Assembly (NCBI GenBank): GCA_037132035.1
Contig: JBAXPY010000002.1
Location: 1-40,549 of the forward strand
Origin: Candidatus Moraniibacteriota bacterium
Lineage (GTDB): Bacteria; Patescibacteriota; Minisyncoccia; Moranbacterales; UBA2206
DNA length: 40,549 bases
Reading direction: 5' to 3'
Shown: piece by piece, positions 11,424 through 29,736 of the stretch
Layout: every line of letters starts with the position of its first letter
How positions within the stretch are numbered: position 1 is the stretch's first letter
The notes under the pieces: model-generated
Database searches by the model: none
What the model saw: only the letters and a program-made list of their open reading frames with translations
What the model was told of the DNA's origin: nothing
Made by a program: the position numbers and the translations under genes

Positions 11424-11578
11424 CCTTCTCCCTCCGGGAGAAGGTGACCCCGCCGCGGCGGGGATGAGGGAAAAGGCTTAATGTTAGGCAAAAACTAAAT
11501 TGGCATAGATTATTCTTAATTTATAGCCCTTGCCCTCACCTGTCACGTGCTCGTGACATCCTCTCCCGGAGGGCGAGG
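11424..11578. repeat. cluster of GC-rich intergenic hairpins
   Basis: CCTTCTCCC/GGGAGAAGG (11424-11444). The 16-nt palindrome CCCCGCCGCGGCGGGG (11448-11463). TGTCACG-TGCT-CGTGACA (11541-11558). CCTCTCCC-GGA-GGGCGAGG (11560-11578). Confidence 0.7.
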
Positions 11579-11587
11579 AGGAAAAAA

Positions 11588-12601: not shown

Positions 12602-12611
12602 TTTGTTTTAT

Positions 12612-13550
12612 TTATTTTTTAACGTGTGAAACCAATAAAATTCCAATTGCAATAATGATAATGGCAAAAATTTTCTGCAAAATGGTTTTTAGGTCCTTTT
12701 TTTCTCGCATCACTTCTGGTACCCAGGCGGAAAAAAGAATACTGAGAATGAAAATGAAGACGTATTCCACTGAGACCAAGGCGCTCACGATAGTCACACT
12801 AGCCAGGGGTAGTGAGGTTGCGAACTCTTTGAGAAATGATCCGCTTCCACCCATAATTTTTGCAAGGACAAATGAAATGCCAGATTTCTGATTGTCCTTG
12901 TGGGGTTTTTTAAATTTCAAAAGTGACCCCAGGATTGCTCGGCGCCAAGTAGGAATCAGAAAAAAACTAAGCGTCCCCAAAAATGCCCCTGCACGGGTCC
13001 AGGCAAAAACATTCAGAAAATTATCATGAATATATAGCGATTTAATCATAATCGCCGAGAGGGCCAGAAAAAATCCCGCCAAAAGCGAAGCGCGAAAGCC
13101 TTTGAAGAATATGCGCTTCTCCAGCTTATCCAATTCAAAAGAAATGAGCAACCCACCAAGAATAAGTGTCCCAATACCGATAATTCCCCGCGCGCCCAAA
13201 CGTTCATGCAAAAATATGACGGCCAGAAAGAAAGTAACAATAGGAATGACTGCACCAACCACTGGAAGCACGCGACTGGCTTCGCCTTTCCTTATTGCAA
13301 AAAACAATGAGAGCATTCCGTAGATAAAAATCATTCCGGAGATGAGACTAAAAACCACCCTGCCTAAACTGATCAGATGAAAACCGCCAAAAAGAAGTCC
13401 GATAACTACTGCGAACAAGCCTAATGTTCCTGAATAAAATGCATAGATTACCGGATGAGAAACGCGCTTGGAAGAAAGTAAAAATTTATCCAGAATAATT
13501 TCCAGCGCCAAAAGAAAATATGCAACTATCGTTATGATTAGCCAATTCAT
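12612..13550 (-). CDS. DMT-superfamily (EamA-like) permease, about 10 TM
   Basis: Polytopic hydrophobic protein with two similar halves. Assignment is from overall pattern only. Confidence 0.55.
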   Translation of the reverse strand: MNWLIITIVAYFLLALEIILDKFLLSSKRVSHPVIYAFYSGTLGLFAVVIGLLFGGFHLISLGRVVFSLISGMIFIYGMLSLFFAIRKGEASRVLPVVGAVIPIVTFFLAVIFLHERLGARGIIGIGTLILGGLLISFELDKLEKRIFFKGFRASLLAGFFLALSAIMIKSLYIHDNFLNVFAWTRAGAFLGTLSFFLIPTWRRAILGSLLKFKKPHKDNQKSGISFVLAKIMGGSGSFLKEFATSLPLASVTIVSALVSVEYVFIFILSILFSAWVPEVMREKKDLKTILQKIFAIIIIAIGILLVSHVKK

Positions 13551-13571
13551 TTTTCTATTATACAGTACAAA

Positions 13572-13610
13572 TCAAAAAGACGATAGAGACGCCCTGCTGG
13601 GGCGTCTCTA
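13572..13610 (-). terminator. rho-independent terminator
   Basis: 11-bp stem TAGAGACGCCC/GGGCGTCTCTA (13584-13610). On the minus strand it is followed by TCGTCTTTTTG. Confidence 0.7.
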
Positions 13611-13617
13611 GATTATT

Positions 13618-14439
13618 TTAAGAATTTACCTTTTTGTAATACAGCGCCACGTCCGCTATCCATTTGCGCACGCCTGCAGGATCATGCCCTGCGCAACTAG
13701 ACCCACACTTCCAGACAACCAGTTTTTCTGCTGTATTAATTTTTTTGTCCAATAGCTCTTTAATCCTTTCACCTACTACTAGGATTGCTTGTTCTGGAGA
13801 GTCAAAACAGCTATAACCAGAAGCGGTTTGATTATATGTCCCCCGATAACCCCAATAATTGAAACAATCATTCCCGCCTTTTTTTGGTGAGTGTTCACCC
13901 CAATCACTTTCTTTTTTGGCAATCGCAATCAGATAAGCTGCTGTTTCACTATCACACTTCACCAAGAAGGGAACCATTTTTTCCAGTGGGCTCCCTGCAA
14001 CTAATTCTTTGTATTTCAACTCTAAGCTACCTAGCGGTGCGCTTTCCGCAGCCGCTTTCTTTTTCTTTGCATCCCTCTCTTGGAGTTCCTTTTTCTCAGT
14101 TTTCCGAATTTGGTCAACGCCAGCTTTAACCTTCTCCATAGGATCAAACTTGAAAAGTTTTACTCTCGTTAAACTCGCTTGAATATCCCCCCCCAAAAAA
14201 GTAGTCTCCGCATTATCACTAAAAGAAACAGCTGTTAAGCTATTTTCTCCAAAATAGACTGAAAAAAACAGCACCAAGCATAGCACGGGCAATATTTTTG
14301 ACGATATATTTAGTTTTCCGATTCCTGTCTTACTCGCAATTTCCTTTTGCGGGCTCCCCACTTGGCGGCTATTCCGCTTTTGACAGAGTAGCGAGAAAAA
14401 CATCAGTTTTTCTCGCAATTTCGGCAGTTCTTCACTCAT
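13618..14439 (-). CDS. TM-anchored protein with Cys-rich lysozyme/glucosaminidase-like C-terminal domain (paralog A)
   Basis: TM helix ILPVLCLVLFFSVYF. The C-terminal domain reads AAYLIAIAKKESDWGEHSP...DCFNYWGYRG...CFDSPEQA...VVWKCGSSC...KWIADV. It is about 50% identical to the C-terminus of 27361-28452. Confidence 0.6.
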   Translation of the reverse strand: MSEELPKLREKLMFFSLLCQKRNSRQVGSPQKEIASKTGIGKLNISSKILPVLCLVLFFSVYFGENSLTAVSFSDNAETTFLGGDIQASLTRVKLFKFDPMEKVKAGVDQIRKTEKKELQERDAKKKKAAAESAPLGSLELKYKELVAGSPLEKMVPFLVKCDSETAAYLIAIAKKESDWGEHSPKKGGNDCFNYWGYRGTYNQTASGYSCFDSPEQAILVVGERIKELLDKKINTAEKLVVWKCGSSCAGHDPAGVRKWIADVALYYKKVNS

Positions 14440-14498
14440 AGAAGCTTTGTTCCCCTTTTCCCCCGTTACAACAATTAACTGTCATAAACAACCCAGAA

Positions 14499-14527
14499 AT
14501 TATAGCAAAAATTGAATTTTTGGTCAA
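14499..14527 (-). promoter_or_regulatory. near-consensus promoter for paralog A
   Basis: On the minus strand: TTGACC (14527-14522), 17 nt spacer, TGc, TATAAT (14504-14499). Confidence 0.6.
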
Positions 14528-14570
14528 CTGCCAAAAACACCAGCTTAAAAAGCCAACTATTGCGCAATAC

Positions 14571-17500
14571 CTATTTCTCTACACCGATCACCCAGTAATC
14601 AAAGGCGATGTCAAACTGCGCTGGCTTATCCAACTTTATCTTGAAACCAACATTATCAATTTTATCTGAAAGCACCCAATTCACCGGACTCGATCCAACT
14701 GGTGTAACAATAATCTTGGAGTCATACATCACTTTCTCATTTTTCACCAAGACCTCTTGCTGTCCAACTCGGATGATTACTGACCCCACATTATTTTTCA
14801 AAGGATCGGCGTTCTCACTAACCACATAATCCTCGGCTTTGACCTTCTTAGCTTTCACTTCCGTTGCCTCCAAATTACCAAGTCCCAAATTGACATTACC
14901 GCTAACATCTTTGTAAATCAGATTATTCATATTGAGCGCTAAGGCGAAATCAATCACAGCCTGACTTTGAGTCTGGACCAGGTCCAATTGATCCTGCAGC
15001 TTTTTCAGATTTTGGCTCAACTCACTCACACTGTCATCCATCTTTTTATTCGTCAGCGCCTGAATCTCCAACTTACCAAAAATATCTTTAAGTGCAGTTC
15101 CTTGATCAATATTATTTAAAAGATCCAAGTTTCCAGTATCAATTGCTTGAGCTAAAGGAACGTAGTTTGCCTTGGTTTCAACGCGAATATTTTTGAATTT
15201 AAGACTAGTGTTAGCTGATAGTTTAAAATAGGCTCTAAAATAATTCAAATGCTGCCAATCAATCTCTCCAGTCTTTGCGCCATCTGCGAGCGGTAATCTG
15301 ACCTGATTCCAACCGGAAAGGAAGAAGGGATGACTAGATCTGATCCATTCAATCTCTTTTTGATCTTGGATATTGCCAAGTTCAGTGTGAAAATCTTCGA
15401 GACTGGCGCTATCTTCAAGAAAAACATCATACACAAGATAGGATTGGTTTTGATCTTTGCCCGAGAGATCCAGCTGATTGGCGCTACCTAGATTAATAGC
15501 CAGCTCTTGAAAATTTTCAGGAGCATTATACTTAGCAGAAAATTGATTATTTTCAATCAATTGGTCAGTCAGAGATGAAGAAAGTTCACTGTTTGCATCT
15601 TTGAATTGATAGAACGGAAGCTCTTGGACTGGTTGACTATTTTGAGAGAGCAAGGCGTTGGCTGAACTTAGCTTGGTGCTGAGAAGATTAATCTGAGAGC
15701 CACTTGCCACGAGGTTAGTTTGGATGGAATTGATTTTTTGATTTGCAAGAGTGGTCTGATTTTGATTGTCTGTTTTGAGGAGAGCAAGTGCTTGATTCAG
15801 TTTTTGAATTTCATTATCTTGGCTATTATTTGAGTTTTGAAGAGCACTGGCAAGGATGGACAAGCTGGAGAGTTGAGTTTGCTGAGCTTTGACACCTTCA
15901 ATAAGAAGAGCGGAGAGATTGCCATAAGCGATACCATAACCATCCTTTTCGTTACCCACTACCACTTCGGGTAGGACTTTCAGCGTATCTTGAGCAATGA
16001 GACCAATTTGACGATCCGCGCCGGGATTAGACTTCCAATTGAAATAGACTCCACTGAGAGATTTGATTTTATCCAAGGGGTTAGTCACGTCCATGATGTT
16101 GGTTTTTAGTCTGGCGTCAGAAGAATGCGCCCAACCGCTAGTCGTGTACGTTCCCGTAGTGGAACCATTGTAGACGGCTAGTTTTTGGGTTGGGGTGGTG
16201 GTACCGATGCCAAGATTACCGGAAATATTAATCCGCATCGCTTCAGCCATAGCATTTGGAGCTGAACTCTTAGTGGATTGTAGAGCTACGCCTAGCTGAG
16301 ATTTAATATAACCACCACCAACATTTGTCCAAGACATATTTACGGTTGACGCTCCCGCTTTATAGGAAGTTGCTACTCCGTTACCATTATTTGCTCCGAC
16401 ATAGTTTATGAGAGTCTGACCAGAACCAACAGTAGGAGTTCCAATATCCTCAGCGCCCCCCACTACATCAATAACCATGTCATTTGTTGCTGCCGAAACA
16501 TTGGTTGAAATGCTACTCCCCCAGTTGTCAGCGACGCCACTCGTGATTCCGAAAGAATTGGTTTGATCAACGTTATAAAAGGTTTCGGCCACGGCTGACA
16601 TCTGACCGTTAGTTGAAGCGCTATGAATTGTCACATTATGCGTTCCAGTGTGAAGCTCTGAATCCTTCAGGTACCACAGCTGAACCAGCGCTGCGCTCCC
16701 TTTGCTATCTAGCAAGTGCATATCAACTCCGTCATATCGTACATACTCAATAGGGATACGCACGCTAGTAGCCACAATCAAAATTTTATTTGATTTTCCC
16801 GCATCAACGGCGTGAGAAATGGTAACAAGAACTCCCGAACCGTTGTAGCCATACGCGGAGCCAACACTGCTATTATCCAATGCAATTGGTTGCCATGACA
16901 ATCCTGGTGACGTTCTGAAAATCAAACTGCCAGAATTTCCCGTTCCTGTTCCAGCGGGCGTGTCAAGAAACATATTGGATCCAGAAATATTCGTTCCACT
17001 AGCCGCCGGGCCCTTGATATAAACATCACTTGGAGTCGCTGTGCCATTGCCAGAGCCGAAAAGAATATTTGAAGTAGCGACGTGCAGTCCAGCTTGCGGA
17101 CTAGTCGTGCCAATGCCAACATTTCCCAAAGTATAATAGATATCATTTCCTGTAGTTACCCACGAACTGCTACCTATACCACTGTCCGTCCAAGCTGTTT
17201 TGCAAACGCCAGCAATACACAACCCGGCAGCGGCGTTAATTTGTCCCAACACACCAGATCCTCTCACATCGACCTTGTAGGTTGGATTATTCGTGCCAAT
17301 ACCGATGTTGCCAGCCTTTAAATACATCGTATTGGCAACAGCTCCAGTTTCTTCACTAGTCAGAGCAGCGACTGAATTTTGGGTTAGGATAAAATTAGCA
17401 CCAGGAGTTAATCCAGTAATTCCCGTTAGAGCTTCAGCTCCTGATCCTCTGTTGATGGCATGCGCGGTTGTCCCGATATACATGGTTTGTCCGATAGGTG

Positions 17501-20500
17501 CGTAGTTGGCAATGGTCGCATAAGCTCCAGTGCCCAGTGCCCCACTAATAGTCACATTATCTTGAACTGTTAAAGTCTTGCCAGCGGCAATATTCAATGC
17601 ATTAGTTCCATTATTAGTGATTGCTAAACCATTGAATAATGGAGAAATGATAGATGTTCCAAAGTAGCCCGTTCTTGGTCTGGTGGCACCATTAGCTCCA
17701 ATATCCAAAGTGTTATCAGTAAAAAGCAAATTACCAGTCAAAGTTCCACCTCCAATAGGAAGATAGGCGCCAGAAGCTGTAAAAGCAGCACTACCTAGTG
17801 TCCCCCCGCCAGTTGGAATGGTTAAAGTAGTCCCAGCTGCTGGCCAAGTCAGTACTCCTGCCCCGCCGTTATTAGTGAAAGTCGTTGTAAAAGTAGCATT
17901 CGTGACTGTCCCAGCATTGCCCGTAACTGATCCGCTAATTGCATTAGTAACGGTAATATCAGTTGCCCAAAGTTTAGCTAGACGATTAGTGGTATCTCCA
18001 ATAGTTTGCGGAGTAGTTTGGCTTGTGAGTACTGCTCCGGCAAGAGAGGTAAGATAACCCATTCCGGTCCAAGGTGTGCCAGTTACATAGGTAGAGTTGT
18101 CATAAGAAATAGTAGTGCCGGCTATCTTAACAAAGCCTGTGCCATTGAGAGCATCTTGTTTACTAGTGGCTAGTCCGGAGTAAAGCGAGTTAGCGGAGTT
18201 GTCACCCGTATTTGTTCCTGAAACTGAAGCATCGAGAGGAACTGTGAGAGTTTTTGAGGTTGTTCCTCCGGCAATAGTGAAACCATTGGTAGCTGCGGTG
18301 AAGGTGAGAGCGTTGTATGTTCCGCCAGTGACATTGCCGGTTGAGTTGATTTGGAATTGAGAAGTGAAGCCAACGGAGAGCAGCGCAGTTGGGGAAGAAG
18401 TGCCAATTCCAACATTCCCTCCATCTTTAATCACAAATGCAGAAGCTCCAGCGTCTTTAAAATTGACGATATTGCCGGAGCCAGATTGGTTGATTGTGAG
18501 AGCATCGGAGGTTCCGTTATAGGCTGCATTAATTAAATTGCTAGAAGTGATACTACCGAGAAGATTAAGATTTCCTAATCCATTAACTTTAAATTTTTGA
18601 CTACCGCCAACTGCGACACCAAGAAGTGTATTACTTACAGCGCCGACTGAGCCGGTGTTTTCATAACCATAAGACTCTCCTGTCCACGTGCCAATCAACA
18701 AATCCTTATCCCCATCATCATCTAAATCAGCAAACGCTGGACGAGGTTTCACGGACCCGCCAACATTAGGAGTATCCCAAGAAGCCTTACGCGACCAGAT
18801 CAGAGAAAAGACGGTGCCAGTATTTTCATAGGCGTAAGATATTCCACCATATTCCCCGATTATTACGTCATAATCACCATCGCCATCCAGATCAGCTAAG
18901 GCAGGGCTAACGCCGTAACCAATATCTGGAGTATTCCAACCTGAGTTGGCCGTCCATGTTGGCAATAGAGTTGTGCCAGTGTTCCGATAGCCATAGGACA
19001 CACCGCTATCTGAACCAACCAACACATCTATCTTTCCGTCATTATCCAAATCAGCAAAAACGGGAGTGGCTGAATCTCCTATGTCAGGCAAATTCCAACC
19101 CGCCCTCGCCGTCCAAATTGGCGAAGAAATTGTTCCGGTATTTTCATAGGCGTAAGATACGCCATTATATCCACCAACCATCAAGTCATAGTCCCCATCG
19201 CCATCCAGATCAGCAAGGGCTGGCTTAACATAAGTAGAGGCACAGCCAATTATATTCCAATCTGATTTTGCAGAAAAACTTGGCGAAGAAATTATGCCAG
19301 TATTTTCATATCCATAAATGTTACTGCCAACACTAATCAGCAAATCAAAGTCACCATCATGGTCTAAATCAGCAAAAGCGGGAGAGCCCATATTACCACC
19401 AGGACTAGGCATATTCCAAGCCGATTTCGCCGTCCAACTCACAATAGGATTAGAACTATACGAAGCCGGATTAATATATAGCGAGCCATTAGAAACACCT
19501 CCTCCCATTGGAATACTTGAAAAAGTTCCCAGTCCCGCCACTTCAAATTTAGAAGTTGGCGCTGTTGTTCCGATTCCGATGTTTCCAGTATTACTACTAT
19601 ATATATCATTACCTGATGTGGTCCAAACGCTACTGCCAATTCCTGAATCAGTCCAAGCAGTTTTACAAATTCCATTAATGCACAGTCCCCCTTCGGCGTT
19701 GATTTGTCCGGCGGCGGCGATGCCTCGGACGTCTAGTTTATAACTTGCAGTAGTCGTTCCAATACCGATATTACCTAGCCCGGAGAAAGTTAGATTATTG
19801 GAAGCAAGAGCAATGTCTGTGGCAGCGGATAACGTACCGCCTAGTTTAAACGCATTGGCAGTTAATGTTAACCCATTTGTGGCAGTGTAACTTGTGCCAG
19901 ATTGTTGATCGAGTTGATATCTGGTTCCTGCGCTCGTGGCGGTAAAATATAAATGCGACCCATCAAATTCTACTGCTCCCCCTTCAGTGGCAGAGAGCAA
20001 GGTTCCGGTTGTAAATTTAAGTGGAGCTGTTCCGGCTGTGGCGGTACCAGCTTTGATGTTGAGTAATGCAGTTGGTGAGGTTGTGCCGATACCAACAAAG
20101 CCCCCGTCTTTGATCATGAAGGCAGAAGTTCCGGCATCTTTGAAATTGACGATGTTGCCGGCACCAGATTGGTTGATTGTGAGAGCGTCAGAGGTTCCAC
20201 TGTAAATTCCATTGATTAAATTATTAGCAGTAAAACTTCCGCTAAGAGTTAATTGACCAAGCCCATTAACTCTCAATTTTTCACTACCAGCCACTGCGAC
20301 ACCAAAAACAGTATTAGTAGCAGCACCAATAGAGCCAGTATTTTCATAAACACGAGTCACATAAGGAGAATATTCCCCGACCAATAAATCAGCGTCCCCA
20401 TCACTGTCTAGGTCAGCAAGAGCAGGAGCAACCCGCCCACCACTGCTATTTGGCGCATTCCAAGATGACTTCGCTGCCCAAACCGGAGAAGAAGCTGTGC

Positions 20501-23500
20501 CAGTATTTTCATAACCATAGGATATTCCATTAGAAGCATTACCAATCAACAAGTCAAAATCGCCATCACCATCTAGGTTAGCAAAAGTTGGATGAGCACG
20601 CGAACTCACGCTAGGTGTGTTCCAACCTGCTCTTGCTGTCCAAGTTGGAGAAGAAACTGTTCCAGTGTTCTCATACGCATAAGCGATACCATCAGACCTG
20701 CCAACTAACAAATCCGTTTTCCCATCATTATTTAAATCAGCAAAAGCAGGGACAGTTTCAGTAAAAATACCTGGCCCATTCCAGCCCGCCCTCGCTGTCC
20801 AAGCCGGAGAAGAAATTGTGCCAGTATTTTCATAAGCGAGAACACCACTACTATAAGATCCGACTAGCAAATCAAAATCACCATCATGATCCAAATCGGC
20901 CAAGGCAGGAGCACTGCGACCATCACCACCCGTAGGGCCATCCCAAGCTGGTTTAGCAGCCCAGCTTGGAGAAAAAGCTGTGCCAGTATTTTCATATGCA
21001 ACTACAGTTGTACTACCAGTACCTGCCAGCATATCCAAATCGCCATCACCATCCAGATCAGCGAAAACAGCATAAACATGACCGCTAATACTAGGTAGCC
21101 ACGCCGCTTTTGTCGTCCAACTAACCATCGGCGCTGAACTATAAGCGGCTGGATTAATATAGAGTGCTCCCTGCGAAACCCCCGTTCCAGTCGGAACACT
21201 GGTAAGTGTCGCTAGTCCTGCAATCTCAAGTTTCGAAACCGGAGTGGTTGTTCCAATGCCAATGTTTCCCGTATTACTACTATATATATCATTACCATTT
21301 GTGGTCCAAACGCTACTGCCAATTCCAGAATCAGTCCAAGCTGTTTTGCAAACTCCGGCAATACATAATCCTCCGGCAGCGTTGATTTGTCCGGCTGCGC
21401 CTGAGCCTTGAACATCTAGCTTGTAACTTGGTGTAGTCGTGCCAATCCCAAGATTTCCATTAAGTGTCAATCCTGCAAAAGTTGGACTGGATGTGGTGAG
21501 AAGACTTTGATTAATAGAAACGTTTGATCCACTGATGGTTAAGGTTCTTGCAGTTGTTCCGCCAAGAAGATTGAAGCCATCAGTCGCTGAAGTTAGCGTG
21601 AGACCATTATATGCACCTCCAAAAATACTACCAACGCCATTAACTCTAAATTTTTGAGAGCCTCCCACTGCAACACCAAAAAGTGTATTACTTGCAGCAC
21701 CAACCGAACCCGTGTTTTCATAGGCATACGACACGCCATTATACTCTCCAATCAACAAATCTTTATCTCCATCATTATCTAAATCAGCCAAAGCAGGAAT
21801 AACATAAGTTCCAATATCTGATACATTCCAGCTTGTTTTTGCAGCCCAAGTTGGCGCAAGAGTTGAGCCAGTGTTTTCATAGGCATTAGTAACGCCATTA
21901 TAATTTCCAATGAGTAAATCTAAATCACCATCACCATCTAAATCAGCAGCGACTGGCAAGGCATTAGCTCCAACGCTAGGAACATTCCAGCCTGATTGCG
22001 CTATCCAAACTGGCGCAAAAGTTGTGCCAGTATTTTTATAAGCATAAGTTAAGCCACCATTTTCACCAATTAATAGATCAATATCACCATCGCCATCTAA
22101 ATCAGCAAAGGCTGGAGCACAAGATGTTCCGATAGATGGCGTATTCCAACTTGGCTCCGCTGTCCAAACTGGCGTAGAAGTAATGCTAGTATTTTTATAG
22201 GCATAAGATACGCCCACATATGAACCAATCAATAAATCCACCTTTCCATCTCCATTCAAATCAGCAAATGCAGGTTTAGCGTAAGTACCAATATCAGGAC
22301 CATTCCAAGCCGACTTAGCCGACCAACTAGGCAACAAATTTGAACCAGTATTTTCATAGGCATAAGATATACCATCCATTGCACCAATTAATAGATCCAG
22401 ATCACCATCGCCATCCAAATCAGCAAAGGCTGGAGCAGCAAGCGTTCCAATATCAGGCGTGTTCCAGACAGATCTAGCCGTCCACTGCACAATCGGATTA
22501 GAACTATACGACGCCGGATTGATATACAGCGCACCCTGCGAAACCCCCGTCCCCGCCGGAATATTTGTGAGAGTCGCTAGCCCGGCAATCTCCAATTTTG
22601 AAACAGGCGTCGTTGTTCCAATTCCAATGTTTCCCGTGTTGTTGCTATAGATATCATTGCCACTTGTCGTCCAAACACTACTGCCAATTCCAGAATCAGT
22701 CCACGCAGTTTTACAAATTCCATTAATACACAATCCCCCCTCAGCATTAATTTGTCCGGCAGCTGCGGTGCCTCGAACATCGAGTTTGTAGCTAGCAGTA
22801 GTTGTGCCTATGCCGATATTACCTAGTCCGGAGAAAGTTAAATTATTAGAAGCAAGGGCAATATCCGTAGCTCTAGTTAGTGTACCACCCAACTCAAAAG
22901 CGGTGGAATTGAGGGTGAGACCGTTCGTGGCAGTGTAGGCCGTGCCAATGGCGGTGCTCCAAACGGGATTAGCGCCAATGCCTTGCGTTTTGAGAAAAGT
23001 GCCACTCGTGCCAGCAGTCAACACGGTCCAGTTAGTGCCATTGTAATACATAACATCACCTTGAGCGGGAGTGACACTGGCCATATCAGAATGGCTCGTT
23101 GAAAAAAGTTGGTGGGCTGAGCCAGGCGCAGTCGTCACCCAAGTGAAGCCTTGTGTGGCTGAGTTGTAAGTCAGAATATTACCATTTTGAGGATTAGTGC
23201 TACTTTCCAAGAGCATGCCTTCTATGATTTTGTTATTACCAATTGAAGTGATGCCAGCATTCGTAATGGCAATGTCACCGGTCATCGCTACACCAGCGGC
23301 AATATTTGAGGCATTACCAATAAAGAGACTGCCACTCGTTAGCAAGTTAGTCATTTTTCCGTTAAATGTATTCCAATCAGTATTTGATAGTGCGCCTGTA
23401 GAGGAAGTGGAAGCCAGAACCAAAGTAAACACCTGGGAGCCATCAACGGAGAGACCGTTGGCAGTCGCGTTGATTGTTGCTGGGTTATGACCAAAAGATG

Positions 23501-26500
23501 ACGTGGATGTATCACAGACTAGTCCCGATGCGGTGGAATAAACGCAGAGCTTCGTGTCAGTCATCGTGCCTTGTTTTAGGGAAAATTCTGTACCCGCTAA
23601 TTGGAGCAAATTACTAGCGGCCGCAGCATATGTTGTACCAGTCGCTGCTTGCCAAGCTGGATTAGCCCCTGCTCCATTCGTTCGCAGGAAGTTACCACTT
23701 GTGCCTGCCGTGAGAGCAGCCCATCTTGTGCCGTTGTAGTAGATCACATCCCCTTGGGCGGGAGTGATGCTGGCCATATCGGAATGAGAGGCAGAGAATA
23801 AATTATGGGCAGTGCCGGGAGCAGTCGCCACCCAAGCAAAACCACTGGTGGCGGAGTTGTAAGAAAGGATATTGCCATTGCTGGGAGTGGTCGTGCTTTC
23901 GTTTAACATGCTTTCCGTGATCTTGTTAGCACCAATACTGGTTACCCCCCCATTGGTGATGGCAATGTCTCCGGTCATCGTGATACTTGTGGCAATATTG
24001 GAAGCGTTACCAATGAAAAGATTTCCACTAGTAAGAGCGGGTGAAAGTTTACTGTTGAAAGTTTGCCAATCGGTATTATTCAGTGCTCCTGTTGTTGAGG
24101 TGGAAGCCAGTGCCAATGCTAGCTCTTGACCGTTTAGGGTTAGGCCGTTATTCGTCGCGTTAATAGTCATCGGGCTGTGACCAACGGTGGTACTGTCTGT
24201 ATTGCAAACTAAATTAGTGCCGTCATAACTGCAAATGCGTCCAGTGGTGAGCGTGCCTTCTTTCATGGAAAACGTGGTGCCAGATAATTGCAGGAGATTG
24301 CCACTCGCAGCATATGTTGTACCAGTCGCTGCTTGCCAAGCTGGATTAGCCCCTGCTCCATTCGTTCGCAGGAAGTTACCACTTGTGCCTGCCGTGAGAG
24401 CAGCCCATCTTGTGCCGTTGTAGTAGATCACATCCCCTTGGGCGGGAGTGATGCTGGCCATATCGGAATGAGAGGCAGAGAATAAATTATGGGCAGTGCC
24501 GGGAGCAGTCGCCACCCAAGCAAAACCACTGGTGGCGGAGTTGTAAGAAAGGATATTGCCATTGCTGGGAGTGGTCGTGCTTTCGTTTAACATGCTTTCC
24601 GTGATCTTGTTAGCACCAATACTGGTTACCCCCCCATTGGTGATGGCAATGTCTCCGGTCATCGTGATACTTGTGGCAATATTGGAAGCGTTACCAATGA
24701 AAAGATTTCCACTAGTAAGAGCGGGTGAAAGTTTACTGTTGAAAGTTTGCCAATCGGTATTATTCAGTGCTCCTGTTGTTGAGGTGGAAGAGAGCACAAG
24801 AGTAAGGACTTGTGAGCCATCGACTGAAAGACCATTGGCCGTAGCGCTTACAGTAATTGGAGTGTGTCCAACGGAAGCGGAAGTGGTATTGCAAACTAGT
24901 CCACTGGTTGTGGAATAGGTGCATAGTCTTGTGTCAGTCAGTGTGCCTTCTCTCAAGGAAAAAGCACTGCCAGTTAATTGGAGGAGATTGCCACTGGCGG
25001 TGTAAGTCGTGCCAGTCGCAGCTTGCCAAGTTGGATTATTCCCTGTTCCGTTTGTTCGCAGGAGATAGCCGTTCGTGCCAGCTGCGAGCGTGGTCCAGTT
25101 TGTGCCATTGTAATAGATGAAGTCCCCTTGGGATGGAGTGATGCTGGCCATATCCAAATGACTGGAAGAAAAAAGATTGTGTGATAGTCCAGGGACAGTT
25201 GGCACCCAAGCAAAACCATTCGTCGCTGAGTTGTAGGCCAAAATATTGCCATTGGCAGGAGTATTTGTGCTTTCGCGTAACATGCTTTCGGTAATTTTAT
25301 CCGCCCCGATTGAAGTTACTCCGGCGTTGGTGGTTGTGACGTCTCCGCTCATCGCAACACCCGTGGCAATATTGGAAGCATTACCGATGAAAAGTCTGCC
25401 ACTAGTGAGAGCGGGTGAAAGTTTGCTGTTAAATGTTTGCCAGTCAGTATTACTTAGTGCTCCTGTTGTAGAAGTTGAGGCTAGGGCGATAGCTAGTTCT
25501 TGACCATTTAGAGCTAGACCATTATTCGTCGCGTTGATGGTGAGTGGGCTGTGGCCAACTGAGACACTGTCCGTATCACAGACTAGGCCACTAATGGTGG
25601 AATAGGTACAAATTCGACCGTTAGTGAGCAGCCCTTCTTTGACTGAAAAAGTGCTGCCCGCTAATTGCAGTAGCGTGCCAGATCTTGTGTAGGTCGTACC
25701 AGTCGCCACTTGCCAAGTCGGATTACTATTAGCACCGTTCGTTCGCAGAAAATTACCACTCGTGCCAGCACTGAGGGCAGTCCAGTTGGTGCCGTTGTAA
25801 TAGATAACGTCTCCTTGAGCGGGAGCGATGTTGGCTGTGTCGGAATGAGCACTAGAGAAAAGATTGTGATTGGTGCCAGCTGGAGCACTCCAGGTGCCGT
25901 CCCCTCTTAGGTATTGCGCAGTAGTACCAGCAGATACGGGAAGATTGTAGGCGCCATTAATATTAAGCGCGCTGACTCTAGTTGCGCCAGTCACTTCCAA
26001 TTTGTAGCTAGGACTAGTAGTGCCAATTCCAATGTTTGTGCCATCATTGTAAAGGACACTGCTGGCAGACCAACCCAAAGAAGTGTGATAGTTAAGTGTT
26101 TGTCCCGTTGTGCCAGTCGGGAGAGTGCCACCGCCACCGCCGAGCATCGTATTACCCCAATAAAGATTACCGCTATTGCTGTAGAGACGATTGGTGGAAG
26201 TTGTGGGCACGGAACTGTCAGCCAGATAGAGGCGGTCTTTAACATCGAGACTAGTCACGTTGATTGTATCTTTGAGCGAAATGGAAACGGAACTGCTAGT
26301 CGTGACCACATTAACATTCCCCGCCCCCAAAATGGAACCAAAAGCATAGCCGGATCCATTACCCATGAGCACCTTGCCATTTTCTGGATTAGTGGTGAGT
26401 CCGGTACCTCCTTGATTTACGGGAAGAGTACCTTGAGTATCGGTACTGAATTTAATTTTGTTAGCGGTTAGTTTTTGATTGGAGAGAGTGAGATATTTTG

Positions 26501-27113
26501 CTCCAGAAAGGGTGAGGGAATCGTTTAGTCTTGAGTCATTGCCCGTGATTAACTGTCCTGCGCCTGTGCCAATGGGAAGATTTTGGATGTCAATCTTTCC
26601 GGTGTTGTTGAGAGAGACGATGTCGCCTGACTGGGTTCCAATCTTTTTGCCATCCAAAAGGGAGGCATTGGTGGCGTTGTAGGCAAAGAGAGTGGAAGTG
26701 ATTCTTTTTCTGGGGACCAGTTCACTATCTTGATTAATCCTGATTCCTAGATAGAATTGATTGTTTTCATTATTGGTTAGGATAGGCAGCTCTTGAGTTT
26801 GCCCAAGATTGAATTTAAGAATACCATTTTTGATGGTGACGGCTTGAGTTTCTTCCCAAACTCTTCGTTCTTTATCTGCGTCAGAAGGATATCTGTCAAT
26901 TGTTGTTCTGTTTTGAGAATAGAGCGCGAAGCGTACGGTGTAATCCCCATTGATCATTTGGCCGGTTTTGTCGGTGACAAAAGCCACCCCTTCCATTTGT
27001 CTGGCGGCCTCCACTTTGAGAAAAGGGCAAAGAGTAAAAAAGACAAAACAAAACAGAAAAATGGCTACATTTTTCTTGTATTTTTTTTCACTTTTCTCTT
27101 TCGAAAATATCAT
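14571..27113 (-). CDS. giant (4180 aa) secreted/anchored tail-fibre-like repeat protein with FG-GAP/VCBS blocks and an S74 chaperone domain
   Basis: Single uninterrupted ORF. It has an N-terminal signal/anchor. Recurrent GN[IV]GIGTT[ST]P.YKL.V.G, LPVNQGGTG and YLPIGGGTLTGNL motifs appear. There are fifteen DLDGDGD.DLL[IV]G repeats. SSDARLKTNI...IGLIAQD...LPEVV is also present. Confidence 0.9.
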   Translation of the reverse strand: MIFSKEKSEKKYKKNVAIFLFCFVFFTLCPFLKVEAARQMEGVAFVTDKTGQMINGDYTVRFALYSQNRTTIDRYPSDADKERRVWEETQAVTIKNGILKFNLGQTQELPILTNNENNQFYLGIRINQDSELVPRKRITSTLFAYNATNASLLDGKKIGTQSGDIVSLNNTGKIDIQNLPIGTGAGQLITGNDSRLNDSLTLSGAKYLTLSNQKLTANKIKFSTDTQGTLPVNQGGTGLTTNPENGKVLMGNGSGYAFGSILGAGNVNVVTTSSSVSISLKDTINVTSLDVKDRLYLADSSVPTTSTNRLYSNSGNLYWGNTMLGGGGGTLPTGTTGQTLNYHTSLGWSASSVLYNDGTNIGIGTTSPSYKLEVTGATRVSALNINGAYNLPVSAGTTAQYLRGDGTWSAPAGTNHNLFSSAHSDTANIAPAQGDVIYYNGTNWTALSAGTSGNFLRTNGANSNPTWQVATGTTYTRSGTLLQLAGSTFSVKEGLLTNGRICTYSTISGLVCDTDSVSVGHSPLTINATNNGLALNGQELAIALASTSTTGALSNTDWQTFNSKLSPALTSGRLFIGNASNIATGVAMSGDVTTTNAGVTSIGADKITESMLRESTNTPANGNILAYNSATNGFAWVPTVPGLSHNLFSSSHLDMASITPSQGDFIYYNGTNWTTLAAGTNGYLLRTNGTGNNPTWQAATGTTYTASGNLLQLTGSAFSLREGTLTDTRLCTYSTTSGLVCNTTSASVGHTPITVSATANGLSVDGSQVLTLVLSSTSTTGALNNTDWQTFNSKLSPALTSGNLFIGNASNIATSITMTGDIAITNGGVTSIGANKITESMLNESTTTPSNGNILSYNSATSGFAWVATAPGTAHNLFSASHSDMASITPAQGDVIYYNGTRWAALTAGTSGNFLRTNGAGANPAWQAATGTTYAASGNLLQLSGTTFSMKEGTLTTGRICSYDGTNLVCNTDSTTVGHSPMTINATNNGLTLNGQELALALASTSTTGALNNTDWQTFNSKLSPALTSGNLFIGNASNIATSITMTGDIAITNGGVTSIGANKITESMLNESTTTPSNGNILSYNSATSGFAWVATAPGTAHNLFSASHSDMASITPAQGDVIYYNGTRWAALTAGTSGNFLRTNGAGANPAWQAATGTTYAAAASNLLQLAGTEFSLKQGTMTDTKLCVYSTASGLVCDTSTSSFGHNPATINATANGLSVDGSQVFTLVLASTSSTGALSNTDWNTFNGKMTNLLTSGSLFIGNASNIAAGVAMTGDIAITNAGITSIGNNKIIEGMLLESSTNPQNGNILTYNSATQGFTWVTTAPGSAHQLFSTSHSDMASVTPAQGDVMYYNGTNWTVLTAGTSGTFLKTQGIGANPVWSTAIGTAYTATNGLTLNSTAFELGGTLTRATDIALASNNLTFSGLGNIGIGTTTASYKLDVRGTAAAGQINAEGGLCINGICKTAWTDSGIGSSVWTTSGNDIYSNNTGNIGIGTTTPVSKLEIAGLATLTNIPAGTGVSQGALYINPASYSSNPIVQWTARSVWNTPDIGTLAAPAFADLDGDGDLDLLIGAMDGISYAYENTGSNLLPSWSAKSAWNGPDIGTYAKPAFADLNGDGKVDLLIGSYVGVSYAYKNTSITSTPVWTAEPSWNTPSIGTSCAPAFADLDGDGDIDLLIGENGGLTYAYKNTGTTFAPVWIAQSGWNVPSVGANALPVAADLDGDGDLDLLIGNYNGVTNAYENTGSTLAPTWAAKTSWNVSDIGTYVIPALADLDNDGDKDLLIGEYNGVSYAYENTGSVGAASNTLFGVAVGGSQKFRVNGVGSIFGGAYNGLTLTSATDGFNLLGGTTARTLTISGSNVSINQSLLTTSSPTFAGLTLNGNLGIGTTTPSYKLDVQGSGAAGQINAAGGLCIAGVCKTAWTDSGIGSSVWTTNGNDIYSSNTGNIGIGTTTPVSKLEIAGLATLTSVPTGTGVSQGALYINPAAYSSAPMVSWTTKAAWLPSISGHVYAVFADLDGDGDLDMLAGTGSTTVVAYENTGTAFSPSWAAKPAWDGPTGGDGRSAPALADLDHDGDFDLLVGSYSSGVLAYENTGTISSPAWTARAGWNGPGIFTETVPAFADLNNDGKTDLLVGRSDGIAYAYENTGTVSSPTWTARAGWNTPSVSSRAHPTFANLDGDGDFDLLIGNASNGISYGYENTGTASSPVWAAKSSWNAPNSSGGRVAPALADLDSDGDADLLVGEYSPYVTRVYENTGSIGAATNTVFGVAVAGSEKLRVNGLGQLTLSGSFTANNLINGIYSGTSDALTINQSGAGNIVNFKDAGTSAFMIKDGGFVGIGTTSPTALLNIKAGTATAGTAPLKFTTGTLLSATEGGAVEFDGSHLYFTATSAGTRYQLDQQSGTSYTATNGLTLTANAFKLGGTLSAATDIALASNNLTFSGLGNIGIGTTTASYKLDVRGIAAAGQINAEGGLCINGICKTAWTDSGIGSSVWTTSGNDIYSSNTGNIGIGTTAPTSKFEVAGLGTFSSIPMGGGVSNGSLYINPASYSSNPIVSWTAKSAWNMPSPGGNMGSPAFADLDHDGDFDLLISVGSNIYGYENTGIISSPSFSAKSDWNIIGCASTYVKPALADLDGDGDYDLMVGGYNGVSYAYENTGTISSPIWTARAGWNLPDIGDSATPVFADLDNDGKIDVLVGSDSGVSYGYRNTGTTLLPTWTANSGWNTPDIGYGVSPALADLDGDGDYDVIIGEYGGISYAYENTGTVFSLIWSRKASWDTPNVGGSVKPRPAFADLDDDGDKDLLIGTWTGESYGYENTGSVGAVSNTLLGVAVGGSQKFKVNGLGNLNLLGSITSSNLINAAYNGTSDALTINQSGSGNIVNFKDAGASAFVIKDGGNVGIGTSSPTALLSVGFTSQFQINSTGNVTGGTYNALTFTAATNGFTIAGGTTSKTLTVPLDASVSGTNTGDNSANSLYSGLATSKQDALNGTGFVKIAGTTISYDNSTYVTGTPWTGMGYLTSLAGAVLTSQTTPQTIGDTTNRLAKLWATDITVTNAISGSVTGNAGTVTNATFTTTFTNNGGAGVLTWPAAGTTLTIPTGGGTLGSAAFTASGAYLPIGGGTLTGNLLFTDNTLDIGANGATRPRTGYFGTSIISPLFNGLAITNNGTNALNIAAGKTLTVQDNVTISGALGTGAYATIANYAPIGQTMYIGTTAHAINRGSGAEALTGITGLTPGANFILTQNSVAALTSEETGAVANTMYLKAGNIGIGTNNPTYKVDVRGSGVLGQINAAAGLCIAGVCKTAWTDSGIGSSSWVTTGNDIYYTLGNVGIGTTSPQAGLHVATSNILFGSGNGTATPSDVYIKGPAASGTNISGSNMFLDTPAGTGTGNSGSLIFRTSPGLSWQPIALDNSSVGSAYGYNGSGVLVTISHAVDAGKSNKILIVATSVRIPIEYVRYDGVDMHLLDSKGSAALVQLWYLKDSELHTGTHNVTIHSASTNGQMSAVAETFYNVDQTNSFGITSGVADNWGSSISTNVSAATNDMVIDVVGGAEDIGTPTVGSGQTLINYVGANNGNGVATSYKAGASTVNMSWTNVGGGYIKSQLGVALQSTKSSAPNAMAEAMRINISGNLGIGTTTPTQKLAVYNGSTTGTYTTSGWAHSSDARLKTNIMDVTNPLDKIKSLSGVYFNWKSNPGADRQIGLIAQDTLKVLPEVVVGNEKDGYGIAYGNLSALLIEGVKAQQTQLSSLSILASALQNSNNSQDNEIQKLNQALALLKTDNQNQTTLANQKINSIQTNLVASGSQINLLSTKLSSANALLSQNSQPVQELPFYQFKDANSELSSSLTDQLIENNQFSAKYNAPENFQELAINLGSANQLDLSGKDQNQSYLVYDVFLEDSASLEDFHTELGNIQDQKEIEWIRSSHPFFLSGWNQVRLPLADGAKTGEIDWQHLNYFRAYFKLSANTSLKFKNIRVETKANYVPLAQAIDTGNLDLLNNIDQGTALKDIFGKLEIQALTNKKMDDSVSELSQNLKKLQDQLDLVQTQSQAVIDFALALNMNNLIYKDVSGNVNLGLGNLEATEVKAKKVKAEDYVVSENADPLKNNVGSVIIRVGQQEVLVKNEKVMYDSKIIVTPVGSSPVNWVLSDKIDNVGFKIKLDKPAQFDIAFDYWVIGVEK
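15789..16124 (-). other. peptidase S74 / endosialidase intramolecular chaperone domain (aa ~3664-3775)
   Basis: SSDARLKTNIMDVTNPLDKIKSLSGVYFNWKSNPGADRQIGLIAQDTLKVLPEVVVGNEKDGYGIAYGNLSALLIEGVKAQQ matches the PF13884 pattern (SD.R.K.NI ... G.IAQ[ED] ... PE.V ... Y..L..LLIE). Confidence 0.75.
18651..19400 (-). repeat. FG-GAP/VCBS block 3 (5 repeats)
   Basis: DLDHDGDFDLLIS, DLDGDGDYDLMVG, DLDNDGKIDVLVG, DLDGDGDYDVIIG and DLDDDGDKDLLIG. Each is followed by ..Y[AG]YENTG. Confidence 0.8.
20331..21100 (-). repeat. FG-GAP/VCBS block 2 (5 repeats)
   Basis: DLDGDGDLDMLAG, DLDHDGDFDLLVG, DLNNDGKTDLLVG, NLDGDGDFDLLIG and DLDSDGDADLLVG. Confidence 0.8.
21711..22485 (-). repeat. FG-GAP/VCBS block 1 (5 repeats)
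   Basis: DLDGDGDLDLLIG, DLNGDGKVDLLIG, DLDGDGDIDLLIG, DLDGDGDLDLLIG and DLDNDGDKDLLIG. Confidence 0.8.
22913..25873 (-). repeat. in-frame tandem array, about 4.3 copies of a 228-231-aa unit
   Basis: Units begin at conserved H416, H645, H875, H1103 and H1334 ([NSA]H[NQ]LFS..H[SL]D....[ITV][AT]P[AS]QGD.[IM]YYNGT.W). The nucleotide period is 684-693 bp. Confidence 0.9.
23622..24790 (-). repeat. 485-bp perfect direct repeat (23622-24106 = 24306-24790)
   Basis: Base-by-base comparison of the two stretches shows identity at an offset of 684 nt. Identical spurious antisense ORFs in the track confirm it. Confidence 0.9.
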
Positions 27114-27208
27114 GCTTCTATGCCCAAGCTAAAAGCAGAACGGCTTGTATTTATTTTGCTTTTTTTACTTTATTTTTTTGGGGAATAAAGTGATCTGGTT
27201 ATGGATGA

Positions 27209-27235
27209 ATTATAGCATGGAAAGGGGAAAGGCAA
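27209..27235 (-). promoter_or_regulatory. extended -10 promoter for the giant gene
   Basis: On the minus strand: TTGCCT (27235-27230), 15 nt spacer, TGc, TATAAT (27214-27209). It lies about 95 nt upstream of ATG 27113. Confidence 0.5.
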
Positions 27236-27360
27236 TAGTGGGAGGAATAAATTATTTTTCCACAAATAAATTCAATAAAAATCTCATCAATCTTGTAACA
27301 CAAAAAAACTGCGAAGATGCATAAAGCTGTTTCCTGGCAGTTAAGCTTGAACTAAAAAAA

Positions 27361-28452
27361 CTATTTTTCTAAATTGAATTTTTTAACATAAAAACCAACA
27401 TCATCAATCCATTTGTTGGCTGCCGCTTGACCGCCCGTAACGGAACAATTTGATCCACATTTCCAGACAACCATCTTAGCTGGAGTATCAAGTTTTTTTT
27501 CTGATATCAAATATTCCATTCTTTTCGCTACGACGTCAACAGCATCCTTCGGACTATCAAAACAAGTATGTCCACCCGTACCCATTCTCTCTCTTTTTCC
27601 CCGATAACCCCAGTAATTATAGCAGTCCTCCCCGTTTAAAACTGGAACGTGCACGCCCCAAGAGCTTTCTTTCCTGGCAATTCCAATCAAGAATGCAGCT
27701 ACAGTCCGATTCCTTTTGGCGATTTCCGGCACCATTTGTTTGATTGGGTAATCCTTGACCATTTCCATTATTTCCTTCTCAAAATCTGATTGCTTAGTAT
27801 TAGCTTCTTCAATCAAAAGCCTCGCGATGTATTCATCATCTGCCATTTTTTCCGCTTCCTTCATAGCCGCTTCTTCTCCCAGCACCCTCTGCGCTTCTTG
27901 CTCTTGAACAATCTGCTCTGTCCCAGCCTTGTCTTTAGCCTCTTGTATCTTAGCTTGCGCGCCTGGACCCAAATAACGATAAATCATCGTCATCAAAAAC
28001 ATTCCAAAAATCAAAGACCCAATAAGGGATACATTCCACATTCGCACCATGCTCACGCCATGAGTATAGCCTGTAAGTGCATCTTTAAAGTATGAATAGA
28101 AGTTAGAATATCTATCTTGAATTTCATCATACATCCACGCTTCTTTTTTCCGAGAATAGGTATGATATATATTTTGTTCTCGTCGTGCTGCAACACCATC
28201 AATCCTTCCCGTGATAAATTCAACTCGCTCCCCACGCCTCAGCCGCAAAAGATCTTCTTGACTAAAATACAATTTAGAATCACAAGTAGTGAAATCTTTT
28301 ACCTTTCCATATTTCTGAGAAAGTAACACGGAAGAATTTTTATGCTTCAAAACAAATTTAGCCAAGGCATAGTCTAATTCTACCGGTTTTTTTTGTTTTT
28401 TTTGTATTCCATCTAGCATTGTTTCAGTATAGCACATTTTTTTCTTTCGCAA
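27361..28452 (-). CDS. TM-anchored protein with Cys-rich lysozyme/glucosaminidase-like C-terminal domain (paralog B)
   Basis: TM helix VSLIGSLIFGMFLMTMIY and a coiled, acidic linker. The C-terminal domain reads AAFLIGIARKESSWGVHVP...DCYNYWGYRG...CFDSPKDA...VVWKCGSNC...KWIDDV. The start is uncertain (28452, 28437 or 28419), and the upstream end overlaps lgt. Confidence 0.6.
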   Translation of the reverse strand: MRKKKMCYTETMLDGIQKKQKKPVELDYALAKFVLKHKNSSVLLSQKYGKVKDFTTCDSKLYFSQEDLLRLRRGERVEFITGRIDGVAARREQNIYHTYSRKKEAWMYDEIQDRYSNFYSYFKDALTGYTHGVSMVRMWNVSLIGSLIFGMFLMTMIYRYLGPGAQAKIQEAKDKAGTEQIVQEQEAQRVLGEEAAMKEAEKMADDEYIARLLIEEANTKQSDFEKEIMEMVKDYPIKQMVPEIAKRNRTVAAFLIGIARKESSWGVHVPVLNGEDCYNYWGYRGKRERMGTGGHTCFDSPKDAVDVVAKRMEYLISEKKLDTPAKMVVWKCGSNCSVTGGQAAANKWIDDVGFYVKKFNLEK

Positions 28453-29309
28453 AAAACAAGTACTAACCCACCAACTAACATCGCGAAAGAAAATAGCTGA
28501 CCTAGCGTAAAATAGCCCAGAAAAAGACCCACCTGCTCATCCGGCTCACGAAAGAATTCCCCAATAAAACGCGCGACAGCATAGCCCATGAGATATAATC
28601 CCAATAATCTTCCTTGCACTACTTTTTTGTTTCTAATTTTCCAAAAGAGCCAAAATAGTAAAAATCCTTCCAAAAAAGCTTCATATAACTGCGAAGGATG
28701 GCGCAAAACGCCCAAAACGTCACTCGGGAAATACATTCCGACCCACATATCAGTTACCCGACCATAGAGCTCTCCATTGAGAAAATTTCCGATTCGACCA
28801 AGCAGATAGCCAGCAGGAATTGCTGGCACGACAAAATCTGAAAGTGCCCAAAAATTTAATTTACGAAATCTCACAAAAAACAATGTAGCCAAAAGTGCAC
28901 CGATCAAGCCGCCATGATAACTCATACCATATATGCCAACAAGCCCGCCAGTAGCCAAATCAAATGGCGAAATAATTGCTAGTGGATGCGCAAAATAAAA
29001 GGACAGATTATAGAACAAAACATAGCCCAGTCTCCCGCCAATAACAACGCCCAAAAAACAAACGTACATGAAATCCAAAATAAAGCCTTTTTGTTTTTCA
29101 AGCTTATCCTTACCTTTTTCATTAAACGTATTTCCGAAGATATTTTCACCTTCATCCAATCGCAACCGCATCTCAAGAAGCCTAAGAACAACAAAAAATG
29201 CCACCAAATACATCACGGAGTACCAGCCGACAGAAAAAAATCCGACATGAAAAATTTCCGGATTAATGTGCTCAGGGATGTGCTGATAGAATTGTAGAAA
29301 GCTATTCAT
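28413..29309 (-). CDS. lgt: prolipoprotein diacylglyceryl transferase
   Basis: GGRLGY, GMSYHGG, GRIGNFLNGELYG, HPSQLYEA and ARFIGEFFREPD are Lgt signatures. Confidence 0.9.
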   Translation of the reverse strand: MNSFLQFYQHIPEHINPEIFHVGFFSVGWYSVMYLVAFFVVLRLLEMRLRLDEGENIFGNTFNEKGKDKLEKQKGFILDFMYVCFLGVVIGGRLGYVLFYNLSFYFAHPLAIISPFDLATGGLVGIYGMSYHGGLIGALLATLFFVRFRKLNFWALSDFVVPAIPAGYLLGRIGNFLNGELYGRVTDMWVGMYFPSDVLGVLRHPSQLYEAFLEGFLLFWLFWKIRNKKVVQGRLLGLYLMGYAVARFIGEFFREPDEQVGLFLGYFTLGQLFSFAMLVGGLVLVFCERKKCAILKQC

Positions 29310-29339
29310 CTGTATTTAAAATATGAACTCCATATAATT

Positions 29340-29440
29340 CACCTCATCCGACCTTCGGCCACCTTCTCCTTGGTAAGGAGAAGGGCATTCTTTCACATTT
29401 CGTCCCCTCTCCTTAATAAGGAGAGGGTTAGGGTGAGGTG
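29340..29440. repeat. GC-rich hairpin cluster closed by an outer stem
   Basis: CCTTCTCCTT-GGT-AAGGAGAAGG (29362-29384). CCCTCTCCTT-AAT-AAGGAGAGGG (29405-29427). Outer pairing CACCTCA (29340-29346) with TGAGGTG (29434-29440). Confidence 0.7.
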
Positions 29441-29730
29441 GATTTTTTAATCTCCCCCTCAACTTTCTTCTCTTCTTTTTTTTCCAGCCGCATCAGGTAA
29501 AAACTAGCCACTGCCACAACGAATGTGATCACTAATGCGTAAACTAGTTTAGCTTTTAGGCTATTTTGATCCTGGGGAAAGAAGTATTCAATAAAGGACT
29601 TAATAGCATCATTCCACGCAAGTCCTGCCACAAGCCCAAGCGCTCCGACGATGTATTTTAAAGTTCTATTGCGCACTTCACTTTTAACCTTAGCAATTTC
29701 ACTGAGTAATTTTACTTCAATTTCTTTCAT
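29428..29730 (-). CDS. small two-TM membrane protein (100 aa)
   Basis: IVGALGLVAGLAWNDAI... and LVYALVITFVVAVASFYL helices with a K/E-rich tail. The last 4 codons lie in the hairpin-cluster outer stem. Confidence 0.5.
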   Translation of the reverse strand: MKEIEVKLLSEIAKVKSEVRNRTLKYIVGALGLVAGLAWNDAIKSFIEYFFPQDQNSLKAKLVYALVITFVVAVASFYLMRLEKKEEKKVEGEIKKSTSP

Positions 29731-29736
29731 AAATTT

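Follow-up and report, generated by a model that had tools for sequence, protein, structure and literature searches.

Why should a gene for a protein of 4180 residues lie between two genes that are paralogs of one another? The question is raised by a stretch of 40,549 nucleotides from a Candidatus Moraniibacteriota bacterium (assembly GCA_037132035.1, contig JBAXPY010000002.1, positions 1 to 40,549), hereafter the window, in which paralog A (13618-14439, an open reading frame (ORF) of 273 aa), the giant gene (14571-27113) and paralog B (27361-28419, 352 aa) all lie on the minus strand. An original prediction, made from the sequence of the window, had noted the shared strand and proposed that A and B may be specialised wall hydrolases forming a module with a fibre of >400 kDa encoded between them. 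Its observation was correct and so was its guess at the fold, but its functional inference over-reached. We consider it likely that A and B are housekeeping GH73-like wall enzymes of Moranbacteria, normally adjacent within a cell-envelope gene cluster, and that the giant gene has been inserted between them.

Two ancient paralogs of a small family

Similarity between A and B was found in their C-terminal domains alone, which are 48% identical over 131 aa (BLASTP, E 3e-41), close to the figure of about 50% first estimated by eye; the same comparison found no mutual similarity between their N-terminal parts. In A the domain occupies residues 141-273 (13621-14019, minus strand) and follows a hydrophobic anchor at residues 45-63 (14251-14307, minus strand). 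In B it occupies residues 222-352 (27364-27756, minus strand), preceded by a transmembrane helix at residues 124-150 (27970-28050, minus strand) and, in the structural model described below, by a long helical linker of ~70 residues (152-221). Hydropathy and modelling place a single hydrophobic segment in each protein, flanked on its N-terminal side by K/R-rich sequence, which fits the N-in/C-out type II anchor earlier predicted for both.

An alignment of 49 non-redundant domains, drawn from databases and from related loci fetched for comparison (named in the style L001), leaves E38, S39, G42, C53, N55, G58, C72, F73, W104, K105, C106, G107 and W121 invariant, and the fourth cysteine, C110, is conserved in at least 90% of the domains; all the motifs and the four cysteines first quoted from A and B are present, and most are conserved family-wide. 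A search of 1.84 billion representative proteins recovered 329 members at E <=1e-3, of which 241 at <=1e-30, the 329 being representative clusters at 50% identity. Most come from sources named Moranbacteria/Moraniibacteriota or 'Parcubacteria group', and a few existing records already carry labels such as 'glucosaminidase domain-containing' or 'FlgJ-related'; scans of A and B against NCBIfam and PHROGs returned nothing meaningful. Across genomes, domains of the A type cluster apart from those of the B type, so the duplication predates the divergence of those genomes. The two proteins are thus old paralogs within a small family with sharp boundaries, most of whose members come from Moranbacteria.

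The family is also multi-copy. Three paralogs occur in a row (B, a third paralog, A) at L015, L016, L028, L057 and L068, and extra copies adjoin a pair of ~1110-1230-aa ORFs that are rpoB/rpoC-sized by length alone (L025, L054, L076, L083), adjoin nusA (L001), or lie ~9 kb upstream of lgt on the same contig (L043 with L018). That A and B might be the duplicated ends of an inserted element was considered and ruled out, given their amino acid identity of only 48% and the distinct A and B clusters in many genomes.

The longest ORF of B extends to 28452, the boundary first given for the gene, with possible upstream starts at ATG 28437 and TTG 28452 (minus strand). Translation most likely begins instead at ATG 28419, yielding 352 rather than 363 aa, because a protein database contains exactly the 352-aa product and ~120 B orthologs of 342-381 aa (two fragments aside) align over nearly the whole length of B. 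The lgt stop codon and this ATG share nucleotides (ATGCTAG). Co-translation of lgt with B is probable, and the overlap of B with the 3' end of lgt reported earlier holds for the shorter product as well.

The N-terminal halves had been described as unrelated, and between A and B they are; in B, however, residues 1-123 (28051-28419, minus strand) form a conserved cytoplasmic region of their own. Its ~120 residues, conserved throughout the aligned B orthologs with the pattern LDG...D.PLA.F...KNSS.LFS...DSKLY...RY...Y, have no match in Pfam, NCBIfam or PHROGs, and are modelled by AlphaFold2 at low confidence (predicted local distance difference test score, pLDDT, 40-70). Such a region may regulate the membrane-tethered hydrolase or provide it with a docking site.

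A divergent, GH73-like family

The domain of A was modelled with AlphaFold2 from a 30-sequence alignment (pLDDT 92.8, predicted template-modelling score, pTM, 0.87), and full-length B from aligned database orthologs (pLDDT ~90 over the GH73-like domain). In Foldseek searches of the PDB, the top seven matches to the A model are all GH73 enzymes (Sphingomonas and Salmonella FlgJ, Listeria Auto, pneumococcal LytB), with probabilities of 0.63-1.00 (6/7 at >=0.97) and query TM-scores (TMq) of 0.42-0.59, at modest E-values of 2e-3 to 0.3, none of them <=1e-3. GH23-like chitinases and goose-type lysozymes come next. The top seven PDB matches to the B model are likewise all GH73, and matches in BFVD are phage GH73 lysins (probability ~1.0, TMq 0.54-0.63). 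The models thus support a lysozyme-like fold for the shared domain, with nearest solved structures that are all GH73, much as the original prediction of a lysozyme- or glucosaminidase-like domain had supposed.

Sequence comparison adds a correspondence at the active site. Alignment to FlgJ with hhalign (P 1.1e-4 to 2.3e-4, probability 45-57%) pairs AIAKKES.WG...NYWGYRG of the family with AQAALESGWG...YNLFGVK of FlgJ, and so places the invariant Glu of KES.WG opposite the Glu of ESGWG. The FlgJ structure 3k3t, described as an 'E185A' mutant, has ALATGWG in place of the ALETGWG of wild-type 2zyc; together with the hhalign pairing, this makes the family's invariant Glu the counterpart of FlgJ E185. 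We take this Glu (E184/E185) to be the GH73 general acid. The Pfam family PF01832 also gives sub-threshold matches in 16 of 30 family members (best E 1e-4).

Several results weigh against a GH73 assignment. A scores 14-16 bits (E 0.02-0.08) against a PF01832 gathering threshold of 30.2 bits, and B has no PF01832 match. Family profiles searched against PDB sequences reach no GH73 chain, these searches giving just chance matches to gp41 and haemagglutinin HA2 at E >=0.15. A gap of ~18 residues in the family lies opposite the FlgJ beta-hairpin TTTEYENGEAKKV, including the TEYENG glutamates, with the hairpin tip TTTEYENGE deleted in the alignment; this hairpin carries the second carboxylate of FlgJ (E223/E224), and no second acidic residue is invariant among the 49 domains. 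With both the tip and a second invariant acid missing, catalysis, if any, may differ from that of FlgJ. Not all GH73 enzymes are known to have the second carboxylate, so its loss weakens membership of that family but stops short of excluding it. For the C-terminal YATD(P) motif the correspondence with FlgJ is uncertain: an extension of the hhalign alignment, itself of low confidence, pairs GHDP..RKWI of A with ATDP..RKLT of FlgJ and provides no Tyr equivalent, and a global hhalign comparison with FlgJ is not significant (probability 1.3%).

These same gaps are the substance of an alternative in which the domains are inactive or altered GH73 derivatives, acting as peptidoglycan-binding anchors, as regulators, or through other chemistry such as that of a lytic transglycosylase. 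The missing hairpin tip with its Glu, the want of another invariant acid, the unreliable alignment of the YATD region, four conserved cysteines that are unusual for GH73, and a family that cannot be reached by sequence from canonical GH73 would all be accommodated by it. Set against them, the general-acid Glu, ES.WG and N.(W/F)G are invariant or nearly so in the 49 domains, which argues for a retained active site, and GH73 itself tolerates variation in the second carboxylate; we regard loss or change of function as improbable. GH73 membership is partly borne out: the fold and the general-acid Glu agree with it, the Pfam threshold and the second carboxylate do not, and the family is best called a divergent, GH73-like variant family.

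Its resemblance to known enzymes can be stated precisely. With FlgJ (5dn4, 2zyc), Auto (3fi7) and LytB (7pj3), the best PDB matches to both models, it shares the lysozyme-like fold; with GH73 generally it shares (A/L)ES.WG including the Glu, a following N-x-(F/W)-G, and an extracytoplasmic location at the wall, here predicted. It differs from GH73 enzymes in its four conserved cysteines, from FlgJ and Gram-positive GH73 enzymes in having an N-terminal type II anchor and no rod-capping domain or wall-binding repeats, and from FlgJ in having no link to flagellar genes. Phage GH73-type lysins (annotated in BFVD as mannosyl-glycoprotein endo-beta-N-acetylglucosaminidase; Bacillus phage AR9, phage G gp588) match in fold, but the family has no PHROG sequence match and sits among chromosomal cell-wall genes rather than in a lysis cassette or virion module. 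A literature search found no report of GH73-like enzymes in Candidate Phyla Radiation (CPR) bacteria. The family so defined is compact and Moranbacteria-centred, comprising divergent GH73-like enzymes that are anchored in the membrane and escape standard Pfam annotation, and its definition is useful without overturning expectations.

A and B are normally neighbours

Related loci in two independent samples were compared with the window: 80 genome loci centred on A-like matches, and a further 80, from metagenomes, on full-length matches to B. A recurrent gene order emerges across relatives, Ddl-aminotransferase-short Mur ligase-DUF5654-lgt-B-[optional third paralog]-A-EamA-GH5-YkuD-C39-RNase H-like exonuclease-HAD, with lgt directly upstream of B in most loci compared. 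In the window, the minus strand carries lgt (prolipoprotein diacylglyceryl transferase, 28413-29309; Pfam LGT, E 3.7e-61) on one side of the trio, preceded by DUF5654, a short Mur-ligase-like gene, an aminotransferase, Ddl and a further Mur ligase (Pfam). On the other side, a downstream backbone (8985-13550) comprises EamA (12612-13550), a GH5-like gene (11588-12601), a YkuD L,D-transpeptidase (10260-11408), a 127-aa ORF (9845-10228) and a C39-like peptidase (8985-9866), all on the minus strand; EamA, GH5, YkuD and C39 were assigned by Pfam and are syntenic in dozens of loci. With these genes around A and B, the neighbourhood is a cell-envelope cluster.

What follows B was counted wherever a B-centred locus extends 1.5 kb or more downstream of it, in 58 cases. 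A family paralog comes next in 34, after a gap of 8-389 bp, and other small genes in 15, often with a paralog further on; EamA or YkuD follows directly in 5, an unrelated ORF of at least 700 aa in 3, and a homolog of the giant gene in 1 (L095). On two short contigs, L086 and L087, B is likewise followed by the beginning of a giant homolog, bringing this arrangement to 3/80 B-centred loci. Among A-centred syntenic loci with enough upstream sequence, a paralog lies directly upstream of A in ~17 and B lies 1-3 genes away in 3 more; large ORFs before A are mainly those of the close relatives L003-L008. The closest B ortholog encountered on a long contig (72% identity) has the order PBP1 ... YceG/MltG-FtsA-626-aa gene-B-EamA-GH5-YkuD-C39, with neither A nor a giant gene beside it. 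The A/B pair occurs, then, in genomes with no giant gene at the locus.

Conserved co-location accordingly gives no support to the three genes as a dedicated trans-wall unit, and the attractive idea of a hydrolase pair dedicated to a giant fibre is corrected. The most economical history starts from a tandem of B and A within an ancestral wall-synthesis cluster, which the giant gene later split in the window's lineage, so that the bracketing looks like a lineage-specific insertion rather than a dedicated three-gene machine. On this reconstruction, A and B would be single-pass proteins oriented N-in/C-out, each exposing a predicted divergent GH73-like peptidoglycan glycosidase outside the cytoplasm. 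We infer that, as the wall grows or cells separate, they would cut the organism's own glycan strands near the membrane; the conserved N-terminal region of B probably conveys some signal from the cytoplasm. The gene since inserted between them would encode a giant FG-GAP/S74 surface protein. Usually lying in tandem in the main cell-wall cluster, the paralogs are concrete candidates for the group's housekeeping glycan-strand hydrolases.

The nearest relatives temper this conclusion. Giant homologs occupy the same position only in the close relatives L005, L006, L086, L087 and L095. At L086 B is 100% identical and the giant start 95%, at L087 79% and 64%, respectively; a giant C-terminus lies beside A at L005 (92%) and L006 (69%); and at L095 a giant-like gene follows a B of just 53% identity. 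Because the B-giant-A order is kept in nearest relatives, some functional link within the clade is possible. The answer to whether giant orthologs are generally flanked by the same paralogs is that the bracket is kept only among close relatives.

Such retention is one argument for a dedicated unit in which A and B, after the manner of FlgJ, would breach or reshape the sacculus of their own cell, letting a fibre of >400 kDa cross it or anchor in it. Specialised hydrolases do accompany trans-envelope machines, for instance FlgJ in flagella and GH23 lytic transglycosylases such as VirB1 or EtgA in secretion systems. The analogy, a hydrolase encoded beside the structure it serves, would gain from a fold nearest to FlgJ-type GH73, from the tethering of both enzymes at the membrane, where a Sec-exported fibre would emerge, and from the large surface proteins that recur near the locus. 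It differs from those systems in that the hydrolase pair is conserved independently of a large gene which varies in both identity and position: most genomes have B and A adjacent without any large gene, the 72%-identical B has neither partner beside it, large genes elsewhere are non-homologous and occupy differing junctions (lgt/B, B/A, A/EamA), and other family paralogs sit at unrelated places beside nusA or the rpoB/rpoC-sized pair.

Putative signals of expression point the same way. Instead of a single operon, they suggest separate units of transcription for lgt-B, for the giant gene and for A. A is preceded by a promoter-like site (14499-14527, minus strand; TTGACC-17-TGcTATAAT, 11/12 consensus matches with TG) that has the best sigma-70-like score in the 17 kb scanned (13000-30000), and is followed, 8 nt past its stop, by a terminator-like hairpin (13584-13610, minus strand; 11 pairs, 7 of them GC, with a T-run). 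An extended -10-like element, TGCTATAAT (27209-27217, minus strand), was read directly ~95 nt upstream of the giant ATG, the hexamer scan having passed over it because its -35 is poor. The separate promoters first proposed for A and the giant gene survive as consensus-like sites, simple matches to consensus at a total frequency that is at chance (34 promoter-like sites found vs 31.2 expected from shuffles). Taking these observations together, we think a dedicated B-giant-A unit very unlikely, and continue with insertion of the giant gene between two housekeeping enzymes.

The giant gene and other large genes at the locus

The giant protein begins with a sequence resembling a signal peptide and contains many FG-GAP/VCBS repeats. 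At residues 3665-3718 (15960-16121, minus strand) it carries a Peptidase_S74 domain, an auto-cleaving intramolecular chaperone, with SSDARLK before it. In phage tail spikes the S74 domain is terminal; here it ends ~460 residues short of the C-terminus, a position that suggests a trimeric fibre shedding, or retaining, a large C-terminal piece. The GC content of the giant gene is 0.45-0.49 vs 0.36-0.42 for its flanks. It holds two identical ~140-aa stretches and a 159-nt tandem array (21984-22467), and it is prone to assembly breaks, since relatives' contigs end inside the gene (L005, L006, L086, L087). Because of the S74 domain the region was also considered as a prophage, and this was ruled out: the flanks are conserved chromosomal cell-wall genes. 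A preprint on giant genes (10.1101/2023.11.21.568195), searched by term, mentions CPR in passing only and has no occurrence of Patescibacteria, FG-GAP, S74 or glucosaminidase.

In other genomes the large ORFs close to the pair are not homologs of the giant gene and fall at differing junctions. Between lgt and B, L057 (1499-7021) encodes 1841 aa with RCC1 repeats. After B, L090 (2590-12501) has an 893-aa TPR protein and then at least 2106 aa of InlB-B-repeat/FN3 protein. Before A there are 1834 aa with FN3 at L031 (3833-9334), 1826 aa with Ig-like/HYR domains at L059 (3983-9460), and a 6257-aa beta-helix protein at L003 (1-7956), which is followed by a Bro-N gene and two small genes. After A, L155 (12236-20785) encodes 2850 aa with FN3. 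A 2810-aa RCC1/FN3 protein precedes a family paralog at L075, a non-syntenic locus with no EamA or GH5 within 10 kb.

In the relative with the 6257-aa beta-helix protein, the Bro-N domain gene and two small ORFs lie between the large gene and A (L003:8257-9900, L004:6557-8035), a hint of mobile-element activity at this junction.

Such variety (FG-GAP/S74, RCC1, FN3, InlB-repeat, Ig-like/HYR, beta-helix) is the basis of a reading in which lgt-B/A-EamA would be a conserved landing site where unrelated giants were gained and exchanged time and again, the membrane-tethered, Cys-stapled GH73-like pair acting as generic wall-opening gatekeepers. We counted 13 large ORFs in 136 locus zones vs 10 in 1.33 Mb elsewhere, ~4-fold per gene junction, a rough figure because the loci are related and hence non-independent, and zone boundaries are loose and open-ended where contigs end. 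This apparent excess counts against the favoured explanation, and is a weak hint that genes for giant surface proteins are tolerated at, or drawn to, this locus, a possible insertion hotspot. That the whole arrangement works as a landing site with gatekeepers we find unlikely; were it so, episymbiotic CPR bacteria would possess a modular surface-display cassette. The possible hotspot is mildly intriguing in its own right, as a recurrent insertion site for fast-evolving giant surface proteins could help find host-interaction genes in CPR genomes.

The same turnover of unrelated, adhesin-like giants could be read as a host-interaction island, Moranbacteria being presumed episymbionts: the giants would serve as adhesins, with the tethered GH73-like enzymes acting at the contact site on the wall of a partner cell rather than on the cell's own. 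The ~70-residue helical linker of B could push its domain away from the membrane, and lysins of this fold from type VI secretion systems and phages do attack foreign walls. The surrounding conserved genes, however, make the cell's own wall (Ddl, Mur ligases, YkuD, PBP1, MltG, FtsA), the enzymes are membrane-anchored rather than secreted, the pair is conserved where the giant gene is absent, and the organism has no known host. We give this explanation little credence, and favour, as before, housekeeping enzymes acting on the organism's own wall beside an inserted giant gene.

Further features of the window

The short Mur-ligase-like gene upstream of lgt (29737-30483, minus strand) encodes a 248-aa protein with the Mur-ligase middle domain alone, which is unusually short for such a gene. 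Its size and position are kept in relatives, as 249-aa frames at L019 and L045 and as 252-253 aa at L096 and L126.

On the plus strand, a 147-aa ORF of SmpB size (4780-5223) lies just upstream of a transfer-messenger RNA (tmRNA) gene; the syntenic relative L003 carries SmpB. The tmRNA gene itself (5284-5714, plus strand) was identified by ARAGORN and by Rfam (RF00023, 148.9 bits), and encodes the tag peptide ANLLTKAKTAIANAFTVNFATALA.

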